Assembly (NCBI GenBank): GCA_016699955.1
Contig: CP064993.1
Location: forward strand, 1,170,001 to 1,202,000
Reading direction: 5' to 3'
Source: Candidatus Saccharimonadota bacterium
Lineage (GTDB): Bacteria > Patescibacteriota > Saccharimonadia > Saccharimonadales > UBA4665
Length of the DNA stretch: 32,000 nucleotides
The first letter of the stretch is position 1. Each line of letters opens with the position of its first letter. A model generated the notes under the pieces. That model was given only the letters and a program-made list of their open reading frames with translations, ran no database searches and was not told where the DNA came from. Positions 18,923-32,000 of this stretch are shown here, piece after piece. The translations under genes and the position numbers were made by a program.

Positions 18923-20437
18923 TTACGCGTTGGGGGGTGGGGTATCGATGTGGGTTTCGTCGCGGGCAAGCATGTGACCTTCGGGGTCAACATCATAGGC
19001 AATAATGCCACCGAAGGGCATTTCTAGACTCTCAACAGCTTGGTCGGATATATTTTCAATGTATTTTATGAGGGCGCGAAGTGAATTGCCGTGCGCAACG
19101 AGCAGCACATTCTTACCAGCCATAAGTAGCGGGACAACTTCATTTTGGTAAAATGGCACCGCGCGCTCATAGACTACTTTGAGCGTTTCGCCATTTGGCA
19201 CCGAGTGATCCCAGCCGCGCCGAATACCGTTAAACTCTTCTTCGCCAACTAGCTCTTTCATGTCCCACTTGTTTTTTCCGGTGTAGTCGCCGTAATCACG
19301 CTCGTTTATTTCTCGGCGGCGTTCATACGGAACATTGAACTGCTGAGAGGCATTGAGCATGCCCTCAAGAGTCTCGAGCGTGCGCACTTGCTCTGAGCAA
19401 TAGGCTTTGTCGAGTTTCATGTCGAGCTCACGGAGCGCTATGCCAAGCAAACTTGCTTCGTGAAAACCCTTTTCGCTCAGGTGAACATCCGTTAGGCCTG
19501 TCCACTTACCACTTGCATTCCACTCGCTTTCGGCGTGACGCGTCAGCAAAAGCTTTCCAGCGGTAGGCTTGATAGGTTTTACCTGGTTTGGTATGTCGCC
19601 GTACCAAAAACGAATGATATTTTGGCAGGTTGTGCCGTTTATACGGCCAATCGCTTCCTCGGTGTTAAACGCGTTATGTGGGGTCAGTATCACGTTTGGC
19701 AACTTGTTGAGTGCCATCAGCGCCACGCTTTGGGCACCGGTTGATGGCGGCAACTTGTTACTGCGCAGCAGGCCAACTTCTTCCTCCATTTTGAAAAGCT
19801 GTTCGCCTTCCAACACGTCGAGCGCGGCACCGCCAAGACGGTCGTGCATGAGCGCATCTGCCAGAGCCGAGGCATCGACGAGCTCACCGCGGGCAGTATT
19901 GACTAAAAAGGCTGTTGGTTTCATGAGCGCTAGTCGTTCAGCGTTTATGAGATGCTTATTTTCAGGAGTAAACGGCGCATGAAGTGTCACTACGTCGCTA
20001 ATCTTTAAAAGCTCTTCCAGCTTTACATATTCAAAGCCAAGGTCACGCGCCAACTCTTCTTTGCCGTATGGGTCAAACCCAACGACACGCATTTCAAAAC
20101 CCTTGGCAATTTTTATAACATGCTGGCCAATATGCCCAGTTCCCACTACGCCAATGGTTTTTTCGTGCAAGTCACTGCCCATCAGTGTGCTGAACTCGAC
20201 TTCATGATTCAAAAAACCTAGACTGGGGGCAAGTTTGCGGGTAAGTGCCAGGAGCAATGTAAAAGTATATTCGGCTACTGTTGATTCGCCGTATGTCGGT
20301 ACATTTACTACCTTTACACCGCGGGCTTCAGCGGCCGTCAGGTCGACATTGTTGAAGCCGGTTGAGCGACAGGCGATAAGTTTTAGCCTGGGCAGTTTCT
20401 CTAACATCTCACTTGTCACACTACTGGTGACAAACAC
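18923..20437 (-). CDS. fusion protein: D-isomer-specific 2-hydroxyacid dehydrogenase (NAD-binding) + histidine-phosphatase phosphoglycerate mutase (GpmA-like)
   Basis: N-part: STGFNNVDL, GVVGTGHIGQHV (GxGxxG), NTARGELVD, LTPHNAF. C-part from about aa 295: LLLTRHAESEWN..KWTGLTDVHLSEKG and AHGNSLRAL. The track ORF starts at GTG 20437, immediately after an in-frame TAG (see the next feature). Confidence 0.85.
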   Translation of the reverse strand: MFVTSSVTSEMLEKLPRLKLIACRSTGFNNVDLTAAEARGVKVVNVPTYGESTVAEYTFTLLLALTRKLAPSLGFLNHEVEFSTLMGSDLHEKTIGVVGTGHIGQHVIKIAKGFEMRVVGFDPYGKEELARDLGFEYVKLEELLKISDVVTLHAPFTPENKHLINAERLALMKPTAFLVNTARGELVDASALADALMHDRLGGAALDVLEGEQLFKMEEEVGLLRSNKLPPSTGAQSVALMALNKLPNVILTPHNAFNTEEAIGRINGTTCQNIIRFWYGDIPNQVKPIKPTAGKLLLTRHAESEWNASGKWTGLTDVHLSEKGFHEASLLGIALRELDMKLDKAYCSEQVRTLETLEGMLNASQQFNVPYERRREINERDYGDYTGKNKWDMKELVGEEEFNGIRRGWDHSVPNGETLKVVYERAVPFYQNEVVPLLMAGKNVLLVAHGNSLRALIKYIENISDQAVESLEMPFGGIIAYDVDPEGHMLARDETHIDTPPPNA

Positions 20438-24158: not shown

Positions 24159-24233
24159 GGCCTCATCTTCTAACGGTTAGGAAATCGGGTTTTCATCCCG
24201 GCAATCGGAGTTCGATTCTCCGTGAGGTCACCA
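24159..24233 (+). tRNA. tRNA-Glu (anticodon UUC), CCA encoded
   Basis: Acceptor GGCCTCA/TGAGGTC (one G:U), short D stem TTC/GAA as usual for tRNA-Glu, anticodon arm TCGGG-TTTTCAT-CCCGG (TTC at 34-36), T arm GGAGT-TCGATTC-TCCGT (first pair G:U), then ACCA. Confidence 0.9.
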
Positions 24234-25911
24234 TAAGAGATTTTTCAAGCGGCGCAAGCCGAAAGACCGAATTCACCCCCGTAAAAAGGGGTGTTTTTGG
24301 TGTTCCATAATCTAAATCATTGTAGGTAGGAAGTTCGTTGAACAATAAGCCAAATAACTTGGCCTTTTTGAGTGGATCCTGCTGCTTTAACAGTAGTGAA
24401 TCGAGGTGTTCCAGAAAATATCGCACTCTCGAGAGTATGCGGTCGATATCGATAGGTTTTTTGTTCTGCATGGCTTGTTTCTCCTTCTCTAACTTTGTTA
24501 TCTTGCTGTGGATGCTTTCGATTTCTTTTTCTATGTAGGCGATAGCGGTTGGATTCGACAGAAGCATGATTTTGCTGATTGCAGCCTCCGCCTCGCCCTG
24601 AAGTGCCGTAATATGGCTTTCTATAGTTGCCTTATCAGCACCAGACAGTGATTGTCTGCGCTCAAACTCGGCACGGACAGTATCGAGTAGCAAGTCTATC
24701 TGGTCTTGGTTAACCTTTATGCGAGCGATAAACTGCGTAATCTTATCGTCCATATCGTCTTTTGGTACTCGGAAATAGTGCCCTCTGTTGCTGCAGTGAT
24801 ACGCCGGGTAGTATTTGCCGGACTTGCCACGGCTAGCGCTGCCGAGGAGCGTATTTTTACATTCGGGGCACAATACCACTTTTTTGTAAGGGAAGTCAGG
24901 GTTATTCATAACTTTATTTACTAAATGTGGCTTCGGAGCTTGTCGGTGGATTTCATACTCACCATCCTTTTCGTTGTAGCCAATATACTTTTTGCTGCGA
25001 TTTGCTCTATTGAACAAGTCGATGGAGATTAAGCCTTCGAAGGCACATTTAACTGGCTGGTAATCAGTCCATTTCTCTACATTAATACCCGCATAAATTG
25101 TGCTTTGCAGCATTTTCTGCATGCTTTTGACGGTGAGTGGGCGACCGCCTTTTTTACAAATGACTTTACTTAAGTCGTCTTTGTTACGGATGTAACTCAC
25201 ACGAGTTTGGTAACCGAGATCGTTAAGCTTGTCGACGATTTCAGTGTCCGTCAGCAGCCCTTCAGCCCGTAATTCAAACATCATGCGTATAAACTGCGCC
25301 TCTTCTTCGCGCGGTCTTAGCACGGTACGCTTTCCTTGATTAGTGTCTACTTTTTCGCTGTAGTATCCAAAAGGCGGTTTGCGCATCCAATACCCGTTCC
25401 TCGTGTAGCGGATCTCTGCGCCAATCATGCGGCTCATAATGTCTCGCAGCTCGTCTCTTGAACGTTCGGCTTCAAGGATCTCCGACTTCTTGCTTGGGCT
25501 ATACACGCTCCATTTATATTCGAACCCAAGGTGGTCGAGCGTATTCACTTGCCGGGAGCTTATAACGCCGTATATATCGACGAGCTGAACTTTGCTCGCT
25601 TCGAGCTGGTTCTTAAGGATATCGTAGCTGAGAGAACCACCACGGGTAAAGCGGTCAATCGATTTGATGACAAATAGGTCTATGGCGTTCTTCGGATCTT
25701 TGCAGTAGTCAACGGCTTCTTGCATGGGCTGCTGTTCTTTACTGGCTGATTCCATGAACACAAAGTACTTTTTGATTGTTATGCCTTTAGTCTCGGCGAA
25801 CCGTTCGATTTGCTCTTTCTGCGCCTCGGGGGAATCGCCATCGGTGCCTTGCTTGGTCGTGGATACTCGTATAGCTGCTACGGCATTTTTGCCAGCTAAT
25901 TCAGAGTGCAT
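24193..25911 (-). CDS. large serine recombinase (integrase type)
   Basis: N-terminal resolvase catalytic domain (AAIRVSTTKQ..., IKSIDRFTRGG), recombinase domain, Zn-ribbon CPECKNTL...YHCSNRGH, long coiled-coil C-terminus. 572 aa. The last 13 codons (MVTSRRIELRLPG) and the TGA stop are encoded antisense to tRNA-Glu. Confidence 0.9.
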   Translation of the reverse strand: MHSELAGKNAVAAIRVSTTKQGTDGDSPEAQKEQIERFAETKGITIKKYFVFMESASKEQQPMQEAVDYCKDPKNAIDLFVIKSIDRFTRGGSLSYDILKNQLEASKVQLVDIYGVISSRQVNTLDHLGFEYKWSVYSPSKKSEILEAERSRDELRDIMSRMIGAEIRYTRNGYWMRKPPFGYYSEKVDTNQGKRTVLRPREEEAQFIRMMFELRAEGLLTDTEIVDKLNDLGYQTRVSYIRNKDDLSKVICKKGGRPLTVKSMQKMLQSTIYAGINVEKWTDYQPVKCAFEGLISIDLFNRANRSKKYIGYNEKDGEYEIHRQAPKPHLVNKVMNNPDFPYKKVVLCPECKNTLLGSASRGKSGKYYPAYHCSNRGHYFRVPKDDMDDKITQFIARIKVNQDQIDLLLDTVRAEFERRQSLSGADKATIESHITALQGEAEAAISKIMLLSNPTAIAYIEKEIESIHSKITKLEKEKQAMQNKKPIDIDRILSRVRYFLEHLDSLLLKQQDPLKKAKLFGLLFNELPTYNDLDYGTPKTPLFTGVNSVFRLAPLEKSLMVTSRRIELRLPG

Positions 25912-26051
25912 AGTGTAGCCTCGCTCTGTGTAAGTTCTTCTTCAGCTATCTCAAGTAGGAGAGTCGCTAAGTACGCAAGCCTATCCGCTTCGTCCGCTTG
26001 GACGATTTCTGGTGGCGTTTCTTTGTTCTTTGAACCTGTAGGCCTGCTCAT
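25896..26051 (-). CDS. small acidic ORF (51 aa) overlapping the recombinase start
   Basis: Hand-found; too short for the ORF track. GAGGG 6 nt upstream of ATG 26051. Sequence MSRPTGSKNKETPPEIVQADEADRLAYLATLLLEIAEEELTQSEATLCTLN. Its last codons overlap the recombinase ATG (25911), so coupled translation is plausible. Function unknown; a recombination directionality or accessory factor is only a guess. Confidence 0.45.
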   Translation of the reverse strand: MSRPTGSKNKETPPEIVQADEADRLAYLATLLLEIAEEELTQSEATLCTLN

Positions 26052-26075
26052 ATCTACCCTCGTTAAGCTTACCTT

Positions 26076-26130
26076 ATAGGGATAATTATACTACACCAAT
26101 AGGGATAACTACAAGCATTTTAGTTATAAT
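26076..26130. promoter_or_regulatory. divergent promoter region with two direct repeats ATAGGGATAA
   Basis: ATAGGGATAA at 26076-85 and 26099-108 (23-bp period), each followed by (ttat)ACTAC. TATAAT on the minus strand at 26085-90 with TTGTAG 18 nt upstream faces the small ORF and recombinase. TATAAT on the plus strand at 26125-30 faces CDS 26211. Confidence 0.5.
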
Positions 26131-26210
26131 TCCGAAATTAGAACTTGTTGCTATTCCGCCCCTGTAAAAGTGCACTTTTGCGTTTCTCTCTTTTATACTA
26201 TGTATACCTT

Positions 26211-26930
26211 ATGGACAGACAACTCAATAACAATCAAATCCAAAATCTCAAAACAGTCCTCAAATTCAGATACGTAACTACCGACAATCTCGCTCACTAT
26301 CAATCAATTACAACTAACTCAGCCTACAGTGCATTAGAAATCCTCAGCAAAGCTGGTTACTTAGAAAAGATATATGAAAAAAGTTACCGACTTTTAAATA
26401 AATCTGCACGGTACTTTTTGACCCAGCAAGCGTTAACGTTCCTGCATAGTCAAGCAGACGTCCAGCTTGATGATGCGATATGGAAAAGCCGTAAGACTGA
26501 TGGCAAGAAAACGCCAGACTTCATCGATCTGCAAGTTGCCCTCCACGCAGCGTACAACGACCTTATGGCCCGATTTGGTAACAAAATAGCCATTGATACG
26601 GCCTTGGAGCTACATGGCACGGAGGGCATTATTAAACCATTGCCGGGATTGCTCGTCAGGCCCCAAACGGGCAAAAACTTTTTCGTAGAAGTTGCCGATG
26701 GCCAGCACCTATTCTTTATTAGGAAGCGCATTAGGAAGTATATCGATAACTACGAATCAAACGAATGGGAGTGGGATACATACCCCGACATCTACTTCAT
26801 GCGCTCTTCGGCGTCGGATCGAACGCGCTTACGTAAGTTCATAAATCAATTGATGGAAGATAGCTACCTCGATGATAGCGACTTCGCGTTTCGTATAGTT
26901 TCTGGAGTGGATCAAATTAAGCTGCAATGA
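26211..26930 (+). CDS. replication-relaxation family-like wHTH protein
   Basis: Track ORF 26145..26930. I prefer Met at 26211 (MDRQLNNNQ). N-terminal winged-helix-like segment (LKFRYVTTDNLAHY...ALEILSKAGYLEK) and a C-terminal ..FFVEVADGQH...IRKRIRKYIDNY pattern recall the Replic_Relax (PF13814) layout. Recognised by eye only. Confidence 0.45.
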   Translation: MDRQLNNNQIQNLKTVLKFRYVTTDNLAHYQSITTNSAYSALEILSKAGYLEKIYEKSYRLLNKSARYFLTQQALTFLHSQADVQLDDAIWKSRKTDGKKTPDFIDLQVALHAAYNDLMARFGNKIAIDTALELHGTEGIIKPLPGLLVRPQTGKNFFVEVADGQHLFFIRKRIRKYIDNYESNEWEWDTYPDIYFMRSSASDRTRLRKFINQLMEDSYLDDSDFAFRIVSGVDQIKLQ

Positions 26931-27181
26931 GTACTGGATACGTTAATTCACGAGCTGGGTGACGATTGCCTGCAAGCATCGCGCGCAGGTAATGGTCGCC
27001 TTGTTTCGACTAAGGGTGCGTTTCATTTGTTAACTAGTGCAACAGACGTGTACATTTTCTGAAAGAATATGTACCGGCTGATGTGCTTGGTGGCAGATAT
27101 TCATTAATTGATTAACCTGTGTTGTTTCGTTAGAAACATCTGAGACATGATTCATTCTTGCACCTGAAGCTTTAGCTGAAG

Positions 27182-27463
27182 GTGGAAGTATGGAGCGTGT
27201 CATTGGTACAATGTAGGCATGAAGTCATTAATCACAAAAGATCAAGATCATGTCGTGAATGTGGATCTTCCAATCTGGTTGATTACAAAGTTTGGTATCA
27301 CCGAGGTGTAGAAAATATAGATGTATATATCACTGAGCCGATAGGAACTAACGATGCGTGTGAAATGGGAGCAGAAGAATCATACAAGTGCGACGATTGC
27401 GGCAGCATTTACCACAAAAAGTATACCAGCCCAGGCTGCATACGTGATTATACATTCGAGTAA
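27182..27463 (+). CDS. small Zn-ribbon-like protein (CxxC...CxxC)
   Basis: Track ORF with CRECGSS and CDDCGS pairs. The start codon is uncertain. Confidence 0.45.
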   Translation: MEVWSVSLVQCRHEVINHKRSRSCRECGSSNLVDYKVWYHRGVENIDVYITEPIGTNDACEMGAEESYKCDDCGSIYHKKYTSPGCIRDYTFE

Positions 27464-27525
27464 AATATACCTAGGTCGACACTATCATCATATAATTGCT
27501 TAGCGTTTCGTAGGAGGCAGTTTAA

Positions 27526-27541
27526 CGTCATGCCCAGGACG
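27526..27541. repeat. hairpin repeat H, copy 1 (CGTC-ATGCCCAG-GACG)
   Basis: Member of a 4-copy family (see findings). Lies 6 nt beyond the stop of CDS 27547..27852(-). Confidence 0.6.
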
Positions 27542-27546
27542 GGTTT

Positions 27547-27852
27547 CTAAAGCCCTGGATAACTCACCGGTCGCCCGATGGTCATCTCGTTATACTCATC
27601 GATATACTCGAGCTCACGCATTTTCTCCGCGTAGTACTCACTTAAGCTTTCGGCTAATCGCACGAGCCTCTCATCCATCTGCCAGTCCTCGACAGTGCAA
27701 CTGTTACCGATACCGCCTCGCATACCGCCACCTAAGTAATTCTGGTAGGCGCTCAGGAACTCATCTTCGTAACCGTAGGCAGATAAATCTAGCTCACAAC
27801 CGCCTCCACGATAGCTAAAGTCTTCTCGTGTGATGTTTTCTGCAATCTTCAT
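27547..27852 (-). CDS. hypothetical acidic protein (101 aa)
   Basis: Track ORF. AGGAG 7 nt upstream of ATG 27852. Confidence 0.65.
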   Translation of the reverse strand: MKIAENITREDFSYRGGGCELDLSAYGYEDEFLSAYQNYLGGGMRGGIGNSCTVEDWQMDERLVRLAESLSEYYAEKMRELEYIDEYNEMTIGRPVSYPGL

Positions 27853-27898
27853 ATCGAATCTCCTAAACTTACGTACTAATAAAAACTGAGCCTTTTTA

Positions 27899-27914
27899 CG
27901 TCATGCTCGGGACG
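27899..27914. repeat. hairpin repeat H, copy 2 (CGTC-ATGCTCGG-GACG), preceded by CCTTTTTA
   Basis: Same family. Lies between the DUF3768 terminator and the start of CDS 27547..27852. Confidence 0.6.
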
Positions 27915-27930
27915 TCATCAACCTATAACG

Positions 27931-27956
27931 AAAACCGAGGAGCTAATACTCCTCGG
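27931..27956 (-). terminator. rho-independent terminator of the DUF3768 gene
   Basis: Minus strand: CCGAGGAG-tattag-CTCCTCGG-TTTT. The hairpin includes the TAG stop (27943-45). Confidence 0.8.
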
Positions 27957-28272
27957 CTAACATGATAGTCAGTACCCGGTGGCAATCCGGACTGAGCGGA
28001 TCACACCAGTATCCGAGACTCTGGTCGTAGTAATCTATTTTCCAAAACAACTTTTACCGGGCTTCAAAACATCCGAAATCATGCTCGCCGTACGGATCGT
28101 TATCTTCAGAGAACTTATCGAAGTCCCTCACTTTCACGAATATCTCATTCATGAACGGTGCCAGTGCCGCTACGCCTCGCGTGACGGTACAACCACTCAT
28201 CCCACGACGGAAGTTGTCGTTTATTGCCGCAATCTTTGCAGACGTTTCATTTAACGCTGTTTCGGTGTCCAT
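27943..28272 (-). pseudogene. DUF3768-family gene interrupted by one in-frame TAA (28054-28056)
   Basis: ATG 28272 with AAGGAGG SD. Sequence MDTETALNETSAKIAAINDNFRRG...DNDPYGEHDFGCFEAR-TAA-KLFWKIDYYDQSLGYWCDPLSPDCHRVLTIMLAEEY-TAG. Both halves carry the family hallmarks (DP.GEHDFG and FWKIDYYD ... VLTIMLAEEY) in one frame of 110 codons. Confidence 0.7.
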
Positions 28273-28324
28273 ATAGACCCTCCTTGTTATTCTTGAGAGG
28301 GCTTTCTGCCTCTCTGTCTGGTGG

Positions 28325-28477
28325 GCACGGGCTGGCATCGGCCAGGGTCAATATGGAGCGCCCCCAGGCGCTTTAGCCCTAGGGACGAACGATGTTGACG
28401 CGGGACGTGCGCCCGTATACTGAGGAAGACAGAGGAAGGAAAAAACCTTTAATAGCTGATATAATTAATTTGAAATG
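28325..28477. promoter_or_regulatory. bidirectional control cassette, copy A (between DUF3768(-) and CDS 28489(+))
   Basis: Ordered conserved blocks shared with copy E: GCACGG, GTCAA(tat), GGAGCGCCCC, GGGACGAACGA, TTGACG (28395-400), 15 nt, TATACT (28416-21), GAGG, AGCTgaTATAATT (28455-67), ATGAA. Inverted repeat GTCAATAT (28347-54) / ATGTTGAC (28392-99). Confidence 0.6.
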
Positions 28478-28488
28478 AAGAAAAATAA

Positions 28489-29001
28489 ATGATTATAAGC
28501 TCATACAAAGTAGTAGAGGTTATAAAAATAAGTCCTAAAACGAGCGACTACTCAATCGACGGTTCGCCAGATATAGTCGTTTACAGCATTAGGTTAGCGT
28601 ACATAGGTGATGATTTATCAGAAACCCCAACTAACATTACGGAAAAATTAACGTGTTTTATAGATTCTAAGGCACCGAAAGTCGGTGACGTCATCTATGG
28701 CAGAAGTAGCTCAACGCTGGAACCGCCTACTGCCAACAAAAAACTTCCTACGGCTACCATAACAGGTGTCGAAATTGCAGCTGACGAAAAACACCCAAAT
28801 CGTATAGAAAAGCTATATTCCGTCAAGACTGATCTTTTAAAAAAATCATTTACTGTTTACGGTGATTCAGAAGGTGCTAATATTCCCTATATAGGCCAAA
28901 AGATAAACCTATGGTTATCTATTTGTGATGATGGTGATGTGGAGGTGTCAGCCGATGAGTTCCCAGAACCATTTGATGAATATACAGAGTTGATTAAATA
29001 A
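28489..29001 (+). CDS. hypothetical protein (170 aa)
   Basis: Track ORF, AT-rich, no SD. Preceded by a 5-codon mini-ORF (ATG 28475, MKKNK) whose TGA overlaps the ATG. Confidence 0.6.
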   Translation: MIISSYKVVEVIKISPKTSDYSIDGSPDIVVYSIRLAYIGDDLSETPTNITEKLTCFIDSKAPKVGDVIYGRSSSTLEPPTANKKLPTATITGVEIAADEKHPNRIEKLYSVKTDLLKKSFTVYGDSEGANIPYIGQKINLWLSICDDGDVEVSADEFPEPFDEYTELIK

Positions 29002-29081
29002 GTTCAGTGCGTACATTGAAAAAACATAGGAATAACCGCAGAATAGGTTAATTATTATTAGAGCTGAAAAATGTTGTTTGA

Positions 29082-29156
29082 ACCTTTTTGCGCCATACTC
29101 AGGGAGTTTGTGCTACTCGAGGTTACTCTCGATAAGCTCGGACCAGCTAATACGTC
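29082..29156. repeat. module X, orphan copy (70/75 identical to 31293..31367); contains hairpin H copy 3 at 29090..29105
   Basis: CCTTTTTGCGCCATACTCAGGGAGTTTGTGCTACTCGAGGTTACTCTCGATAAGCTCGGACCAGCTAATACGTCC. The minus strand encodes ..GRISWSELIESNLE-TAG, the same C-terminus as CDS 31323..31601, but no intact gene is attached. Confidence 0.8.
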
Positions 29157-29167
29157 CCAGTGCACTT

Positions 29168-29212
29168 GCCCTAGGGACGAACGACGTTGACGTGGGTAAT
29201 GAGCTTGTATAC
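29168..29212 (+). promoter_or_regulatory. partial copy of the control cassette (module Y plus -35/-10-like boxes), orphan
   Basis: CCCTAGGGACGAACGACGTTGACGTGGG is 26/28 identical to 28377-28404. TTGACG (29186-91), 15 nt, TATACC (29207-12). It points into the antisense of minus-strand CDSs 29241..29985. Confidence 0.5.
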
Positions 29213-29240
29213 CGACCAACAGGTACCTATCTGTTTCGGA

Positions 29241-29444
29241 TTATTGGTGACGAAGCAGGTAATAACTTGGCTCGGTGAATGGTTTACTGAATAATACTCG
29301 GCGAAGTTCGAGTAAATAGTATCCTATCTTCGGGATTCGTGGAGCTGTATTTTCTTCCGTAGCTAACATCCTCTCGGCTTCTTCGCCCTCGATAAGCTGG
29401 CTATATTGTTTACAATTTTTGACGTTCATCGGATTCTTCTCCAT
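29241..29444 (-). CDS. possible small ORF (67 aa), doubtful
   Basis: Track ORF. Overlaps the 3' end of the upstream CDS by 35 nt, has no SD and no recognisable family. Confidence 0.3.
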   Translation of the reverse strand: MEKNPMNVKNCKQYSQLIEGEEAERMLATEENTAPRIPKIGYYLLELRRVLFSKPFTEPSYYLLRHQ

Positions 29445-29985
29445 TAACCGTATCGAGATATTTTCTAATTATCAGCCCCTGCATCCAATATACATAATAC
29501 GCGAGACTGTTTGTTGAAAATGTATATCTATAATAAAAAAACGAAATATGCATTAATACAACCCCCAAGACATAATATGGAGCTGCTTGTACTGCGAGAA
29601 TCGACGGCACTAACAAAAGTACACTATAACTAATAATGATGAATCTAAGGATATCATGCATTGACTGTGCGAATATACGATTCACATCTACTGTTCCGCC
29701 ATGAATTATTTTATGGAATCGTTTGTAGCCCAGACCTGAAACTACGCCGTGATGGATACTAAAATCTTCCTCAGAATCAAGCATAGTAAATATGGAATCA
29801 AAATATGGATCTTTACCAGAATAACGACGTAAACGAGCATACATAAAAATATTGTCTATGTTTATATATGCCAACCAATAACCTATTGCACAACCAACTA
29901 GTAATGCTAACTGAGAGTCCATTACTAAAATTTTAACATTAACTTCAATAGCATGTATTCTAAGTATTAATAACGTCGAGTTCAC
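29410..29985 (-). CDS. multi-pass membrane protein (191 aa or shorter)
   Basis: Track ORF (GTG start at 29985; alternative Met at 29922, MDSQLALL). Several hydrophobic helices (LALLVGCAIGYWLAYI, FIIISYSVLLLVPSILAV, YYVLGVVLMHISFFYY). Confidence 0.6.
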   Translation of the reverse strand: MNSTLLILRIHAIEVNVKILVMDSQLALLVGCAIGYWLAYINIDNIFMYARLRRYSGKDPYFDSIFTMLDSEEDFSIHHGVVSGLGYKRFHKIIHGGTVDVNRIFAQSMHDILRFIIISYSVLLLVPSILAVQAAPYYVLGVVLMHISFFYYRYTFSTNSLAYYVYWMQGLIIRKYLDTVNGEESDERQKL

Positions 29986-29996
29986 GGTGAAACACT

Positions 29997-30064
29997 TCGA
30001 GTTTATTCTCGTTTAGCTCAAGCGAGCTAATGCGCCCGTATACTGAGGAGACAGAGGAAGGAAA
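29997..30064. repeat. divergent module X fused directly to module Z (-10 box plus leader)
   Basis: TCGAGTTTATTCTCGTTTAGCTCAAGCGAGCTAATGCG aligns with the X core TCGAGGTTACTCTCGATAAGCTCGGACCAGCTAATGCG. GCGCCCGTATACTGAGGAGACAGAGGAAGGAAA (30032-64) matches 28409-28442 with one 1-nt indel. Confidence 0.7.
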
Positions 30065-30193
30065 TACCTCACTAATAAGTGCAACAAATTTGACATAATG
30101 AACCAAAAGGTGCATTGTATACCTAATGATTCTACAAAAAGATTCAGAATCATTATTATAATTATCATCAAGAATCTTCAAGGAGGATAGTCT

Positions 30194-30394
30194 ATGGCTC
30201 AAAAGCCAGAAGATAAGCTATTAAATACAACACAAAATAACGATCTAACATTGACCGGTAAGCCTGTATTGGTTCAAAACCAATTAGGCATTTTCTACGG
30301 CACACTAGAAAAGGCCGACACAAGAACCGGAACTGCTCTTTTAACAAACGGCTTTATGCTATCGCCTGAACGGCACATCACATTTTTTTATTAG
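30194..30394 (+). CDS. hypothetical protein (66 aa)
   Basis: Track ORF. Strong SD AAGGAGGA 6 nt upstream of the ATG. Confidence 0.6.
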   Translation: MAQKPEDKLLNTTQNNDLTLTGKPVLVQNQLGIFYGTLEKADTRTGTALLTNGFMLSPERHITFFY

Positions 30395-30420
30395 CGACTT
30401 GTGCATGGAAGTAGCTACTA

Positions 30421-30927
30421 GTGATTACGGTGATGAAAGCGATGACGGCGCAATTGACCCCTGGGATAAAGCCGAAAAGTTATTTCCAAAATGAAATATC
30501 AATAACAAACGAGGAATACATAGAACACAAAAGAGCTATTTCGATTACAGACTATGCGGCCGAGGGGGTGGCATTAGTGCAATTCAGAACTAGCACCTAT
30601 TGGAATACTGAAGTTTCTCAAGCTACATCGCCATCGATATCTTTAACTGGAATAATGGCTATAGTTGCTATAGACCCAAATACAGAAGTAGTACATAAAG
30701 AATTGTCCATATTGGCTAGCGAGGATATATCTGGCCTTGGAGTTATTGAGTCTGTTCTTGGCTGGGATATTCCAAACTTTGAAGTGAGAAAAACATTCGA
30801 AATATTAACAAAAAGTGTCAGTAACATAGAAGATACCGACTTCCTCAATCTTCCTAAACTGGCTGTAAATACGAGTCAAAGGGTTAGTCTTATTGGACGA
30901 GTAGAATCTGATGACCAAGCTAACTAA
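30421..30927 (+). CDS. hypothetical protein (about 165 aa)
   Basis: Track ORF (GTG 30421; ATG 30433 is an alternative start). No family recognised. Confidence 0.55.
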   Translation: MITVMKAMTAQLTPGIKPKSYFQNEISITNEEYIEHKRAISITDYAAEGVALVQFRTSTYWNTEVSQATSPSISLTGIMAIVAIDPNTEVVHKELSILASEDISGLGVIESVLGWDIPNFEVRKTFEILTKSVSNIEDTDFLNLPKLAVNTSQRVSLIGRVESDDQAN

Positions 30928-31207
30928 ACGAGACTGGGAAAATCGCCAAAAAGTGCGAGAAAACATTAAAGAAAAAATATATAGATCATATAATAGCAGG
31001 AGTATGACTCATTGCTATACGATAAATAGGAATAAGCTTCTTTTTGAAAGTAAAATGAAAGCAGATCTTGCTGTAAAATATAGCAACGGCGAACTCAAGC
31101 GCTCATATGTATGTCGCACTTGTATGGGCTGGCATACAACCAGCAAAACAGAAGAAGAATATAACCAGAAGAGACTAGAATTTTCAAAGGCGCATCGTAA
31201 TATTTAA
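30911..31207 (+). CDS. small basic protein with CxxC..WH motif (98 aa)
   Basis: Track ORF overlapping the previous CDS by 17 nt. Lys/Arg-rich with a YVCRTCMGWHTTS segment. No family assigned. Confidence 0.55.
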   Translation: MTKLTKRDWENRQKVRENIKEKIYRSYNSRSMTHCYTINRNKLLFESKMKADLAVKYSNGELKRSYVCRTCMGWHTTSKTEEEYNQKRLEFSKAHRNI

Positions 31208-31292
31208 CGGAATAATTGAAAAACACGATTAATGCTATCATCTATGGATAAGTGTCTAGCTGATGGCTTCAGCTTATCTTGATTCGAAGTAG

Positions 31293-31367
31293 CCTTTTTG
31301 CGCCATGCTCAGGGCGTTTGAGCTATTCGAGGTTACTCTCGATAAGCTCGGACCAGCTAATGCGTCC
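31293..31367. repeat. module X, gene-attached copy; contains hairpin H copy 4 at 31301..31316 (CGCC-ATGCTCAG-GGCG)
   Basis: Covers the last 14 codons, the stop and 30 nt downstream of CDS 31323..31601. Confidence 0.8.
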
Positions 31368-31601
31368 GAAAGCAGTTTGTAGCAAGTCTTGCCACAGGCA
31401 CGGTACATCTATTTCATCGTCTAGCTGGTACCGTAGCATCATCTCCAGCCAGTCAGCTTGTTCATATGTTCGCCACGCATCTTTGCTCGTAGCTTCTAGC
31501 AGGAGCGCATAGCTTGACTCATCGTTTGTGAGCCAGAGATTTGCGAGCCACGTCTCGTAGTTACTCCACCCATTGTATGTCTGTACCTCTGCTACGTTCA
31601 T
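31323..31601 (-). CDS. small acidic Trp-rich protein (92 aa)
   Basis: Track ORF. AAAGGAG SD. The N-terminal NGWSNYETWLANLWLTNDES motif resembles a motif I associate with phage/plasmid orphan proteins. No name assigned. Confidence 0.7.
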   Translation of the reverse strand: MNVAEVQTYNGWSNYETWLANLWLTNDESSYALLLEATSKDAWRTYEQADWLEMMLRYQLDDEIDVPCLWQDLLQTAFGRISWSELIESNLE

Positions 31602-31637
31602 TGTTATTTCTCCTTTACTTTACGTAACGGAGTTAAA

Positions 31638-31793
31638 GCACGGTGCCGCATGGCAAATCTGTCAAGGTGGAGCGCCCCTTGACGTTTACCAACGGGACGA
31701 ACGACCTTGACGGGTTTGCTCGGTACGTATAATGAGGCAGTACGTGAAGTGACATGATATTAAATAATCATTATCAGCTATAATTTAGGTATG
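31638..31793. promoter_or_regulatory. bidirectional control cassette, copy E (between CDS 31601(-) and the FtsK-like gene(+))
   Basis: Same ordered blocks as copy A: GCACGG (31638-43), GTCAAGG (31661-67), GGAGCGCCCC (31669-78), GGGACGAACGA, TTGACG (31707-12), 15 nt, TATAAT (31728-33), GAGG, AGCTATAATT (31776-85), ATGAA (31791). GTCAAGG pairs with CCTTGAC at 31677-83 and 31705-11. Confidence 0.6.
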
Positions 31794-32000
31794 AACGATG
31801 GTACAACGCTCCAGTTTCTCGTAGGAACTACCGACGACGGCATGGCAGTCTATGGAGACTTCCAGAAAACAGGGCACTTTATATCCTCTGGACATGTTGG
31901 CTCGGGACACGCCAGCTACGACGAAGCAGTGTTTGTCACAAATCTTTTACAGAACTATTCACCTAAAGAATTACAGTTTGTCATGATTGATCCGAAACAA
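31791..32000 (+). CDS. FtsK/SpoIIIE-family DNA translocase-like protein (5' part only)
   Basis: Hand translation: MNDGTTLQFLVGTTDDGMAVYGDFQKTGHFISSGHVGSGHASYDEAVFVTNLLQNYSPKELQFVMIDPKQ. This aligns by eye with the FtsK pattern H(L/F)L(I/V)AGxTGSGKS...L...P.E(V/L)..(L/V)IDPK. The open frame runs to the window end. Confidence 0.6.
   Translation, partial: MNDGTTLQFLVGTTDDGMAVYGDFQKTGHFISSGHVGSGHASYDEAVFVTNLLQNYSPKELQFVMIDPKQ

Follow-up and report, generated by a model that had tools for sequence, protein, structure and literature searches.

A repeated hairpin unit in a probable Saccharibacteria integrative element, its probable deletion derivatives, and its possible role as a single-stranded DNA promoter

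The DNA analyzed in this study (the window, 32,000 nucleotides) is bacterial chromosome, probably of Saccharibacteria/TM7, into which a large serine recombinase has inserted an element at tRNA-Glu (Table 1). The tRNA gene overlaps the 3' end of the recombinase gene, whose product is 98% identical to the protein of one relative (L116) and 46-49% identical to those of L006, L087, L102, and L108. Among relatives, Replic_Relax proteins, TraG/TrwB/DUF87-like ATPases, and CHAP hydrolases adjoin the serine recombinase. The Replic_Relax homolog of the window, for which Pfam returned a weak wHTH match only, lies 1.4 kb to the left of the hairpins described below, and the window stops short of any transfer genes of the element. 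The DUF3768 gene is broken by an in-frame TAA at 28054-28056, its homologs being 110 aa in length, and is followed by a 101-aa gene without a match in Pfam and PHROG; this gene order was constant among the relatives searched by tblastn. The DUF7249 protein was predicted to form five helices (AlphaFold2 model, pLDDT of 86.9), and the model had no structural match in the PDB. Sequence searches of PHROG, Pfam, and the PDB returned no function for either DUF7249 or DUF3768, while literature searches found no papers on DUF3768 and nothing specific on integrative or conjugative elements of Saccharibacteria. At the right edge, the FtsK/SpoIIIE-family gene has its own TATAAT (31779-31784), 6 nt 5' of its ATG. 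Identity of the element with a known phage was rejected, as a megablast search of 27000-32000 against deposited phages returned nothing.

Table 1. Features of the integrated element and of its repeated units (coordinates refer to the window).
Feature	Position	Strand	Evidence or remark
tRNA-Glu(UUC), left attachment site of the element	24159..24233	+	ARAGORN; Rfam tRNA match
Large serine recombinase, 572 aa, element integrase	24193..25911	-	Pfam Resolvase and Recombinase; PHROG integrase
Replic_Relax-like protein, candidate relaxase/replication-relaxation protein	26145..26930	+	28% identity, E 9e-20, to PF13814 protein of L076
Conserved gene of 101 aa, in one leftward unit with DUF3768 and downstream of it	27547..27852	-	tblastn, 76-91% identity, >15 relatives
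W copy 1, small conserved hairpin	27891..27915	+	CGTC/GACG stem, loop ATGCTCGG; between DUF3768 and the 101-aa gene
DUF3768 gene	27943..28272	-	Pfam PF12599; homologs P0057, P0068, P0077
Hairpin A, type 1, intact	28312..28434	+	ssDNA fold; covariance model match 85.7 bits; covariation
Extended -10 promoter TGATATAAT of the rightward gene 28489-29001	28457..28465	+	Read from sequence
W copy 2	29083-29107	+	Left part of orphan X
Orphan X	29083..29167	+	W copy 2, then the stop and final 14 codons of a DUF7249 gene otherwise lost (minus strand)
Orphan Y	29168..29215	+	Loop and 3' arm of a type-1 hairpin, without 5' arm
X', diverged DUF7249 3'-end remnant (GRISSLELNENKLE), stop codon lost	29996..30038	+	79% identical to intact X
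Z', distal part of a hairpin 3' arm (GTATACTGAGGAGACAGAGGAAGGAAA)	30038..30064	+	Joined straight to X', between GCGCCC and G
W copy 3, 3' boundary of the intact DUF7249 unit	31293..31317	+	Left part of X
DUF7249 gene, intact, 92 aa, strongly acidic	31323..31601	-	Pfam PF23907; 56 homologs
Hairpin C, type 2, intact	31639..31746	+	ssDNA fold, z-score -3.1; covariance model match 101.9 bits
FtsK/SpoIIIE-family gene, cut at the window edge	31791..32000	+	Pfam PF01580; homolog in L068

The initial annotation had described three short modules, X, Y, and Z, that are reused within the right part of the window, and these repeats were found to be real and far above chance. Two copies of X (29083-29167 and 31293-31377) share 89% identity over 85 nt. 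Y is present at 28376-28423, 29168-29215, and 31688-31735, and its core GGGACGAACGAYNTTGACG had three exact matches against 0.02 expected. The motif GCTAATRCGYCC occurs three times (0.43 expected), once at the end of each X copy. The proposed orphan gene end was likewise recovered by translation: the minus strand of 29113-29160 reads ...ALGRISWSELIESNLE followed by a stop codon; this reading frame is preceded by an in-frame stop and lacks a start codon. The intact DUF7249 protein ends in ...FGRISWSELIESNLE, and X' translates as GRISSLELNENKLEV. Two further components were absent from that annotation. The first is the partner 5' arm of Y, located at 28347-28373 and 31661-31687. The second is the motif W, which makes up the left 25 nt of X and has a third copy outside it; a pattern search returned three matches against zero expected, and about 48 distinct instances were found in relatives, where W and the hairpins share one strand.

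X, Y, and Z all belong, in collinear order, to a single unit of about 460 bp. Read on the plus strand, the unit consists of W, a leftward gene, a 40-46-nt leader with the Shine-Dalgarno sequence (SD), and an imperfect hairpin of 105-125 nt, where the leftward gene is either DUF7249 or DUF3768 with its companion gene. X corresponds to W plus the last 14 codons of DUF7249, and Y plus Z form the 3' arm of the long hairpin. Two units are intact, one with hairpin A and DUF3768 and the other with hairpin C and DUF7249. In hairpin A, the 5' arm pairs with Y and Z, and at the base Z (AGACAGAG) pairs with the DUF3768 leader (CTCTGTCT); TTGACG (28395-28400) is paired and TATACT (28416-28421) lies in an internal loop. 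In hairpin C, TTGACG (31707-31712) is also paired, and TATAAT (31728-31733) lies mostly inside an 11-nt bulge.

The other copies are incomplete. The X+Y copy is the unit without the gene body and the 5' arm, and the X'+Z copy additionally lacks the loop and most of the 3' arm. Orphan Y retains TTGACG (29187-29192) and a degenerate -10, TATACC (29208-29213), and has lost the long hairpin fold, with a z-score of only -1.27 and a covariance model match of only 17.6 bits. Z' is 97% identical to the end of the 3' arm of a type-3 hairpin in L014. Judged from their sequences, the two copies fit internal deletions of about 310 and 360 bp. Each junction falls on a GCG(Y)CC/CCC microhomology common to X and the hairpin, and the junction sequences align with the hairpin on their right-hand side. 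GCGYCC occurs five times in 28250-31800, every time at a module border. The copies would have been wrecked by deletion between two occurrences of this motif, one terminating X and the other within the hairpin, a process that was probably mediated by the microhomology and possibly favored by the palindrome. The combinations X-gene-Y, X-Y, X-Z, and Y-Z are all collinear with the intact unit, as nested deletions would give. The anatomy of the unit together with the deletion model is considered highly probable.

Hence the modules do occur in different combinations, as had been noted, but a fixed or site-specific exchange point is not supported. Although all three X copies end at GCTAATRCGYCC, the half-hairpins of relatives have other junctions, and a fixed recombination site is therefore unsupported. 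Those in L116 and L089 break inside the core, between ...GTACG and CGAACGA, and the one in L109 breaks between ...TTATATT and GAGCGCCCC. Among 14 relatives, GCTAATRCGYCC had one exact occurrence, in an unrelated context, and the suggestion that it is a recurrent junction was not upheld. The suggested exchange by the recombinase is likewise unsupported, as nothing ties the serine recombinase to the junctions and its own attachment site is tRNA-Glu. It is highly improbable that site-specific exchange at GCTAATRCGYCC shuffles the cassettes, or that the hairpin units are themselves mobile in an IS110-linked, MITE-like manner. The shared end motif of the three X copies, the defined unit ends at W and the hairpin, the hairpin units without neighboring genes in L058 and L088, and the fixed arrangement of hairpin units beside IS110 transposases would all suit such exchange or mobility. 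Against it stand, besides the collinear combinations and the differing junctions, the lack of any noticed target-site duplications, the attachment of the recombinase at the tRNA, and the lack of an IS110 gene among the window ORFs submitted to Pfam and PHROG; tblastn with IS110 queries covered the fetched loci. A comparison of IS110 boundaries between L058 and L066 gave a weak 15-nt match alone on the far side. Identity of the window hairpins with an IS110 bridge or seek RNA was rejected, as no IS110 gene was present among the ORFs examined and the internal loops are tiny (2-4 nt) and invariant; such an RNA would adjoin a DEDD (IS110) transposase gene and carry two guide loops, complementing target and donor.

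Comparison of related elements supports the conserved units as the points at which homology starts or stops. For example, L116 matches the window at 92% identity over 24176-28449, and the match stops just past Z. In L036, L038, L082, L083, and L107, homology to the DUF7249 unit begins exactly at 31291, the left edge of W. Chimeras of hairpin subtypes were observed in L034 and L113, and type-1 arms were combined with a type-2 loop in L009, L036, and L056. The units are the only conserved sequence amid variable cargo and may therefore serve as anchors for homologous and illegitimate recombination, which would produce the mosaic seen among relatives. What had appeared as module shuffling would then represent decay and recombination at a fragile repeated palindrome rather than a new recombination system.

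About 45 copies of the hairpin were found in integrative elements of the Saccharibacteria type, and versions of it also occur in Actinomycetota and Chloroflexota. As single-stranded DNA, it forms an imperfect hairpin that is both long and stable (z-scores of -2.5 to -3.1), and the fold recurs in more than 20 copies. In the consensus fold, explicit pair counts gave 90.5% paired cells, compared to 24-40% when the partner columns were slid. Compensatory double changes were observed at nine of the 22 pairs, and the covariation score was 0.343 against 0.126 in shuffles, none of 500 shuffles reaching the observed value, while these covariation counts are inflated by the kinship of the sequences. The outer stems differ entirely in sequence between type 1, type 2, and the copies of Actinomycetota, yet all of them pair. 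The hairpins are also richer in GC (0.63 and 0.56) than the remaining element (0.41). Conservation of the apical motif TGGAGCGCCCC...GGGACGAACGA is 100% in copies from three phyla, and the motif includes a bulged A and mismatches of the G.G, A.A, and G.A types. Wobbles are asymmetric, with 29 G.T cells against three A.C cells, which indicates that the folding strand is the one carrying TTGACG and TATAAT in the sense orientation.

The covariation and the wobbles of G.U type would fit a transcribed RNA equally well, so a structured RNA, either a small RNA or a cis-regulatory leader, was also considered, and it appears very unlikely. A search of Rfam 15 at the gathering score identified only tmRNA and two tRNAs, and relaxing the threshold to E<=5 for 27800-32000 added nothing relevant. 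On the plus strand, the region preceding the 5' arm contains the start of the leftward gene and lacks a conserved promoter, and on the minus strand each wobble turns into an A.C mismatch. Moreover, conserved -35 and -10 hexamers at promoter spacing within an RNA helix would have to be a coincidence, and the right-hand context is variable.

In the consensus, TTGACG lies in the paired stem and is followed 15-16 nt downstream, on the 3' arm, by TAnAnT. The variants TATAAT, TATACT, TAGAAT, TACAAT, and TAAAAT were observed, with T1, A2, and T6 fixed, and the -10 hexamer falls in an internal loop in the TM7 and Actinomycetota folds alike. A plain sigma-70 scan missed this cassette because the spacer from TTGACG to TATAAT is 15 nt. 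The genes on the two sides of the hairpin differ in their constancy. The SD and ATG of DUF3768 or DUF7249 were found on the opposite strand, at 43-47 or 55-64 nt from the hairpin, in 39 of the 40 distinct left flanks, without a -10 between the hairpin and the SD. A leftward duplex -35 made of the left-arm TTGAC(C/A) was rejected, as a -10-like hexamer was missing 16-19 nt further on in every subtype. The genes on the right are variable (FtsK, HsdM, PadR-like, and others), and an own -10 of the TATAAT type just 5' of the ATG was present in 27 of the 41 distinct right flanks, compared to 18% in the background. In all 17 loci with multiple copies, the hairpins lie on one strand.

Y and Z were initially read mainly as a simple duplex promoter of the rightward genes. 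This was dropped because of the stem covariation, the invariant left neighbors, and the own -10 boxes of the right-hand genes. A duplex-promoter role of the 3' arm is nevertheless conceivable, as most right-hand genes are co-directional with the boxes and orphan 3' arms persist. In its fuller form, the region would be an ordinary double-stranded divergent control region, where TTGACG-N15-TATAAT drives the rightward cargo and the palindrome is the operator of a dimeric regulator, encoded by the element, under whose control the leftward genes would also stand. The good match of the boxes to sigma-70 and the persistence of intact boxes in the orphan 3' arms that precede rightward genes in L089, L109, and L116 agree with such a region, and repressor-controlled establishment promoters are known in Gram-positive plasmids (PMC6294495). 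Even so, it is judged unlikely. An operator would leave unexplained the compensatory changes along more than 16 bp of stem, the replacement of both arms by different yet complementary sequences in three lineages, and the excess of G.T over A.C. The 15-nt spacer is poor for a duplex promoter, and the right-hand genes usually have their own -10 whereas the left-hand genes would be left without any.

The reading favored here is that the hairpin acts as a promoter or initiation signal on single-stranded DNA, of the Frpo/ssi type; as deduced from sequence and fold, its probability is put at about even. Conjugative transfer of the element, or its rolling-circle replication, would make the plus strand single-stranded. 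Folding of the hairpin would then place the -35 TTGACG in a duplex stem and leave the -10 pre-melted in an internal loop, and the host RNA polymerase would start about 7 nt past the -10, reading first the 5' arm as template and, beyond it, the 5' flank of that strand. The product would be a leadered mRNA of the leftward DUF3768 or DUF7249 genes, with predicted 5' ends at the base of the hairpin (AGACAGAG... or GTGCTTTAAC...), and the hairpin transcript could also prime second-strand synthesis. Once the DNA is double-stranded, the promoter would be weak owing to its 15-nt spacer, and the leftward genes would be without a -10 of their own. An account that blends this function with the anatomy and deletion model is considered slightly more probable than improbable.

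Some observations do not sit easily with the single-strand promoter. A plain promoter does not need the conservation of the apical motif, which points to an additional ligand. A high-GC subtype (L081, L095, and L119) combines TTGACC with a perfect 23-bp stem and lacks an evident -10. The hairpins of Actinomycetota and Chloroflexota adjoin genes of IS110-family transposases rather than DUF3768 or DUF7249. FtsK/SpoIIIE-type translocases of actinomycete elements move double-stranded DNA, and with such a system alone a conjugative single-stranded stage would be lacking.

The same structural and polarity evidence would also suit a single-strand origin (sso/ssi) that merely recruits RNA polymerase or primase to prime the complementary strand, with the invariant apical motif as a possible recognition site of the primase or polymerase. 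In ssoA, a conserved CS-6 (TAGCGT) lies in the terminal loop and RS_B in the stem. No TAGCGT was seen in the apical loops of hairpins A and C (CAGGCGCTTTAGCCCTA and TTGACGTTTACCAAC), and motifs of the CS-6/RS_B type appear to be missing; the hairpin is present in two to four copies per element, an unusual number for an sso. As is proposed for the window hairpins, the sso of rolling-circle plasmids (ssoA and ssoU) and sso1 of ICEBs1 are orientation-specific single-stranded hairpins that recruit RNA polymerase in mobile elements of the Gram-positive type, including ICEs (PMC4595007), and Frpo also primes DNA synthesis (PMC9849209; 10.64898/2026.01.09.698686). However, an sso yields short primers and has no fixed distance to an SD or ORF. 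In 39 of 40 flanks, the SD and start codon lie at a fixed distance of 43-64 nt, which argues for transcripts that enter the genes, and the leftward genes have no other promoter. A priming function by itself is considered quite unlikely.

Known single-stranded DNA promoters occur as several similar GC-rich copies per leading region, upstream of early genes (PMC9849209, 10.1101/2025.04.03.647016, PMC12672017). The set compared here included Frpo1-3 of F (= ssp), ssi1-3 of ColIb-P9, and classes 1-3 of pESBL, from IncF and IncI leading regions. The window hairpins resemble them as long, imperfect, relatively GC-rich hairpins of one strand with -35 and -10 boxes, present in several copies per element and potential substrates of recombination. 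In both, the boxes are oriented such that the folding strand itself templates the adjacent genes in its 5' flank, which are small and acidic or of unknown function. Frpo2 of the F plasmid folds on the template strand of ssb with the genes in its 5' flank, the same topology as in the window; its -35 and -10 boxes were not located by a scan at the thresholds used, so the comparison with F rests on topology. Several differences were also observed. The hairpins described here are 105-125 nt in length, compared to about 300 nt in Frpo; their -10 lies in a bulge, whereas that of Frpo is reconstituted in a stem; their apical motif is invariant across Saccharibacteria, Actinomycetota, and Chloroflexota; and they are hosted by an integrative element with a serine recombinase rather than a proteobacterial plasmid.

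If the single-strand promoter reading is true, these would be the first such promoters beyond enterobacterial plasmids in the literature surveyed, and also the first in the ultra-small, host-dependent Saccharibacteria. The natural covariation would reveal which parts matter, namely pairing of the -35 and of the start region, with the -10 left unpaired. The covariance model would provide a sequence handle for identifying, in integrative elements that are still unstudied, which strand is transferred and where the leading region lies, and DUF3768 and DUF7249 would be nominated as candidates for early establishment or anti-defense functions.

IS110-family elements use hairpins such as REP sequences and attC sites as targets. 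Transposase genes lie beside the hairpin at a fixed distance and orientation in one contig of the TM7 type and in many contigs of soil Actinomycetota and Chloroflexota; in contrast, the window ORFs examined included no IS110 gene. A broader reading, which taken jointly is regarded as unlikely, would be that the hairpin is a new pan-phylum single-strand initiation signal, with the apical TGGAG.../...ACGAACGA bound by a conserved factor beyond sigma; that elements of Saccharibacteria, actinobacterial hosts, and Chloroflexota use it to switch on early genes once single-stranded; and that a clade of the IS110 family either prefers it for docking or has borrowed it as a module. Should the hairpin be such a promoter, its covariance model would allow one to ask whether Saccharibacteria and Actinomycetota hosts have one signal in common.

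Integron attC sites are likewise imperfect palindromes that fold as single strands, show structure-dependent conservation with unpaired bases, and border small gene units. They are, however, poorly conserved outside their RYYYAAC/GTTRRRY cores and belong to promoterless cassette arrays served by a tyrosine integrase, whereas sequence conservation is high here, the recombinase is of the serine type, and the genes have their own expression signals. The earlier exclusion of attC was confirmed: no IntI was present among the ORFs examined, where a serine recombinase was the only recombinase, the hairpin ends carry no GTTRRRY, and the genes have either an SD leader or their own -10.

For the reuse of the modules, the best analogue may be the PeSL cassettes of T4-type phages, which are short, sigma-70-like promoters with stem-loops among variable small genes, and whose recombination leads to insertions, deletions, and replacements (PMC2839356, PMC4122927). 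PeSLs are duplex promoters beside terminator stem-loops in lytic phage genomes, whereas here the hairpin itself contains the boxes, its associated gene is encoded by the other strand, and the host is an integrative element. As a functional analogy, the likeness appears in the breakpoints at Z (28449) and W (31291) and in the chimeric hairpins.

Modules X, Y and Z, which the initial annotation had described as reused in different combinations, were recovered by a repeat finder together with the diverged copy X', and the translations agreed, so that this observation was confirmed. The intact unit, in + strand order, consisted of the small conserved hairpin motif W, the DUF7249 gene, its leader, the 5' arm, the loop, Y, and Z, where X corresponds to W plus the last 14 codons, and every module combination in the window was collinear with this order. 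The locus is very probably built from a repeated W-gene-leader-hairpin unit, in which Y+Z is the 3' arm, X is the gene end, and the orphans are remnants of deletions at microhomologies.

Features of the window (window numbering; - marks genes and leaders on the minus strand)
Feature	Position	Strand	Remarks
Chromosome	1 to ~24000		PGK, pyruvate kinase, PEP-utilising enzyme, enolase, UvrD, tmRNA, tRNA-Ala
Fusion ORF	18923-20437	-	D-2-hydroxyacid dehydrogenase fused to histidine-phosphatase (His_Phos_1) domain
tRNA-Glu	24159-24233
Large serine recombinase gene	24193-25911		minus strand; 572 aa; last codons (3' end) overlap tRNA-Glu
Replic_Relax-like gene	26145-26930		28% identity, E 9e-20, to PF13814 protein of related locus L076
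W copies	27891-27915; 29083-29107; 31293-31317
DUF3768 gene	27943-28272	-	in-frame TAA at 28054-28056
Type 1 leader	28273-28318	-
Hairpin A (type 1)	28312-28434		beside DUF3768
Y copies	28376-28423; 29168-29215; 31688-31735
Own -10, rightward gene	28457-28465		TGATATAAT
X copies	29083-29167; 31293-31377		85 nt, 89%
Orphan (X+Y)	29083-29215		gene end 29113-29160: only ALGRISWSELIESNLE and stop, in-frame stop before it
X'; Z' (diverged copies)	29996-30038; 30038-30064		X' translates as GRISSLELNENKLEV
DUF7249 gene	31323-31601	-	92 aa, ends FGRISWSELIESNLE and stop
Type 2 leader	31602-31640	-
Hairpin C (type 2)	31639-31746		beside DUF7249
Own -10, rightward gene	31779-31784		TATAAT
FtsK/SpoIIIE-family gene	window edge

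Judged from the sequences, X+Y and X'+Z would be explained most simply by two internal deletions, of ~310 and ~360 bp, with short direct repeats at their ends; each would have taken out the gene body together with the 5' arm, and the second the loop and the greater part of the 3' arm as well. The orphan junction read AATACGTCC joined to CAGTGCACTTGCCCTAGGG, and its hairpin counterpart GGAGCGCCCC joined to CAGGCGCTT(T)AGCCCTAGGG. The motif GCGYCC occurred only five times on the + strand in 28250-31800, each time at a module border. Z' was 97% identical to the type-3 arm of L014, and if the lost ancestor had such an arm, the microhomology at X'+Z would be only CCC. The orphan has decayed: its -10 reads TATACC beside a diverged spacer, the neighboring genes on its right lie on the opposite strand, and the long hairpin is no longer formed (z-score -1.27; 17.6 bits).

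W is a 25-28-nt motif (CCTTTTTRCGYCATRCTCRGGRCGT / GAGCCTTTTTACGTCATGCTCAGGACGG) with three copies in the window versus zero expected, and ~48 distinct instances were found in relatives (loci L002-L116 from public genomes and metagenomes), immediately behind the stop codons of leftward genes and, without exception, on the hairpin strand. It forms a small hairpin with a fixed 8-nt loop and a 4-bp stem that covaries between CGTC/GACG and CGCC/GGCG. A classical terminator was ruled out, as the mRNA strand carries an A-run rather than a U-run after W.

Exchange at a fixed boundary, as proposed in the initial annotation, was not supported, and the mechanism as a whole was supported only in part: the reuse of modules held, as did the units as borders of homology, whereas breakpoints differed among relatives. 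Half-hairpins in relatives had other partners and other breakpoints, inside the core in L116 and L089 and before GAGCGCCCC in L109, and the exact motif at the end of X was not found as a recurrent junction in relatives. Further truncated copies occurred in L034 and L087, and chimeras between hairpin subtypes, in which folding was lost, in L034 and L113. The window was 92% identical to L116 over 24176-28449, the match stopping right after Z, and five relatives began to match at 31291, the left edge of W; the units are where homology between relatives begins and ends. The promoter/stem-loop (PeSL) cassettes of T4-type phages behave in the same way (PMC2839356), and the behavior also matches the recombination concern raised for the two copies of Frpo, the single-stranded DNA (ssDNA) promoter, in the F plasmid (PMC9849209). 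Conserved cassettes repeated among variable cargo serve as recombination anchors, and the long palindrome as a fragile spot.

A scan of public genomes for the Y core yielded 70 loci, of which ~20 shared far more than the core, with GTCAAnnTGGAGCGCCCC upstream of it and flanks forming an inverted repeat that changed in a compensatory way. In a 21-sequence alignment with an explicit structure, 90.5% of cells were paired, compared with 24-40% for slid partners, double-sided changes occurred in 9 of 22 pairs, and the covariation score was 0.343 versus 0.126 in shuffles (0 of 500 as high), figures that are inflated by the kinship of the sequences. The outer stems of type 1, type 2, and high-GC copies were unrelated in sequence while pairing was retained. 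G.T wobbles exceeded A.C (29 vs 3), and therefore the folding strand is the one carrying TTGACG and TATAAT in sense. No Rfam family matched the hairpin.

When hairpins A and C were folded as ssDNA, TTGACG was paired, the -10-like hexamer, which lies 15 nt downstream, fell within an internal loop or bulge, and pairing resumed around the expected start site; in type 1 this renewed pairing joins Z (AGACAGAG) to CTCTGTCT, with which the DUF3768 leader begins. Actinomycetota copies had the same layout, with exactly CATCGT (L058) or CATGGT (L030) as the six unpaired bases. Across TATAAT, TATACT, TAGAAT, TACAAT, and TAAAAT, T1, A2, and T6 were fixed, a variation resembling that of a real -10. The apical part, TGGAGCGCCCC, a variable loop, and GGGACGAACGA, was 100% conserved across Saccharibacteria, Actinomycetota, and Chloroflexota, mismatches and A bulge included; since this exceeds what a promoter needs, an additional ligand is likely. 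A third subtype was found upstream of DUF3768 (L014 3151-3269, L107 2289-2408, L113 5410-5530, and L038 5660-5729), where the inner stem and loop were swapped for an AT-rich hairpin, nearly deleted in L038. It retains the outer stem, TTGAyA, the 15-nt spacer, TATACT, and the GACAGAGG base, and of the apical part only TGGAG...ACGA around the replaced inner stem. One high-GC subtype has a perfect 23-bp stem and TTGACC, with no obvious -10.

A covariance model of the long hairpin identified ~45 intact copies in TM7-type loci. Of 40 distinct 5'-arm flanks, 39 contained the Shine-Dalgarno sequence and ATG of a DUF3768 or DUF7249 gene on the opposite strand, at a fixed offset from the hairpin of 43-47 nt (type 2) or 55-64 nt (type 1), and no -10 was found between hairpin and Shine-Dalgarno in these flanks. 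The genes to the right differed in nearly every locus (FtsK, HsdM, PadR-like, AIR-synthase-like, and others), and 27 of 41 distinct right flanks had, a few bases ahead of the start codon, a TATAAT-type -10 of their own (background, 18%). Because the left genes are constant and the right genes variable with their own -10, the hairpin is to be assigned to the leftward genes, although its promoter boxes point in the other direction. Most right-hand genes are co-directional with the sense boxes, so some duplex promoter activity is possible. In many loci (e.g., window 31779-31793), TATAAT typically lies 6-12 nt before the ATG with no Shine-Dalgarno, which suggests leaderless cargo mRNAs, in contrast to the leadered hairpin-linked genes.

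The DUF7249 protein is strongly acidic (17 D/E versus 4 K/R by direct count) and predicted to have five helices; its model had no match in the PDB. The DUF3768 frame is interrupted between FEAR and KLFWKIDYYD, where 110-aa homologs read through (the first part shares 99% identity with homolog P0057); a nonsense mutation has probably made it a pseudogene recently, in which case hairpin A would now drive a broken gene. Both leaders are conserved and structured, with a CTCC...GGAG pairing in type 2 that is predicted to sequester the Shine-Dalgarno and a GAGAGG/CCTCTC hairpin at the predicted 5' end in type 1. Additionally, a 25-nt AT-rich inverted repeat (28452-28476 and 31757-31781; 72% complementary) overlaps the own-promoter regions of both rightward genes and may be due to chance.

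The hairpins lie in an integrated element of lower GC that runs rightwards from tRNA-Glu. The overlap with the recombinase gene marks its left attachment site, and the right end is beyond the window. Relatives were overwhelmingly Candidatus Saccharibacteria MAGs, which encode a TraG/TrwB/DUF87-like ATPase and a CHAP hydrolase beside the same genes, and together these genes make up the equipment of an integrative conjugative or mobilisable element of the Gram-positive type. None of the deposited phages was similar to it. In the close relative L068 (1147-2925), the FtsK-like gene is followed by two genes that may be defence-type cargo, one with a T5orf172 domain and one for a reverse transcriptase (RVT_1). 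On the chromosomal side, the fusion ORF sits in the glycolytic gene cluster (PGK, pyruvate kinase, enolase, PEP-utilising enzyme).

The best available reading of these sequences, to which we give about even odds, would make the hairpin a promoter or initiation signal that acts in ssDNA and belongs to an integrative, probably conjugative element of Saccharibacteria. In ssDNA with the sense boxes on the 3' arm, the template for RNA polymerase would be the 5' arm, followed by the 5' flank of that strand, and the products would be exactly the leadered mRNAs of the leftward genes; if so, the paradox of boxes pointing away from the genes served is resolved. All copies were on one strand in 17 of 17 multi-copy loci, which agrees with this reading, as a strand-specific signal requires it. 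Translocases of the FtsK/SpoIIIE type are able to move dsDNA, so we infer the single-stranded stage from the relaxase-like and coupling-protein genes of relatives. The topology is shared with F, where ssb and psiB point toward oriT and Frpo2 folds on their template strand with the genes in its 5' flank. As in described ssDNA promoters, there are several similar copies per element, GC is above the surroundings (0.63 and 0.56 versus 0.41), and small genes without annotated function lie downstream. The criteria applied here, namely a hairpin that carries the boxes in its stem and precedes an operon, are those by which ssDNA promoters have been identified in the literature (PMC9849209; PMC12672017; 10.1101/2025.04.03.647016).

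Insertion sequences were also found at the hairpin. IS110-family transposase genes lay beside it in a fixed arrangement in L027, L030, L066, L086, L091, L096, L097, L099-L101, L105, and L114, as well as in L001, with the sense boxes pointing at the transposase 3' end ~150-320 nt away. The sources of these copies were MAGs of Actinomycetota and Chloroflexota, metagenomes from soil, and a single TM7-type contig. In L058 and L088 the same hairpin unit (~279 nt) occurred without a transposase, and the hairpin may be an insertion target or part of the IS end. In L038 (3541-3984), a type-2 hairpin is separated from its DUF7249 gene by the insertion of an IS200-like (Y1) TnpA gene, which adds another kind of ssDNA-dependent IS to those at the hairpins.
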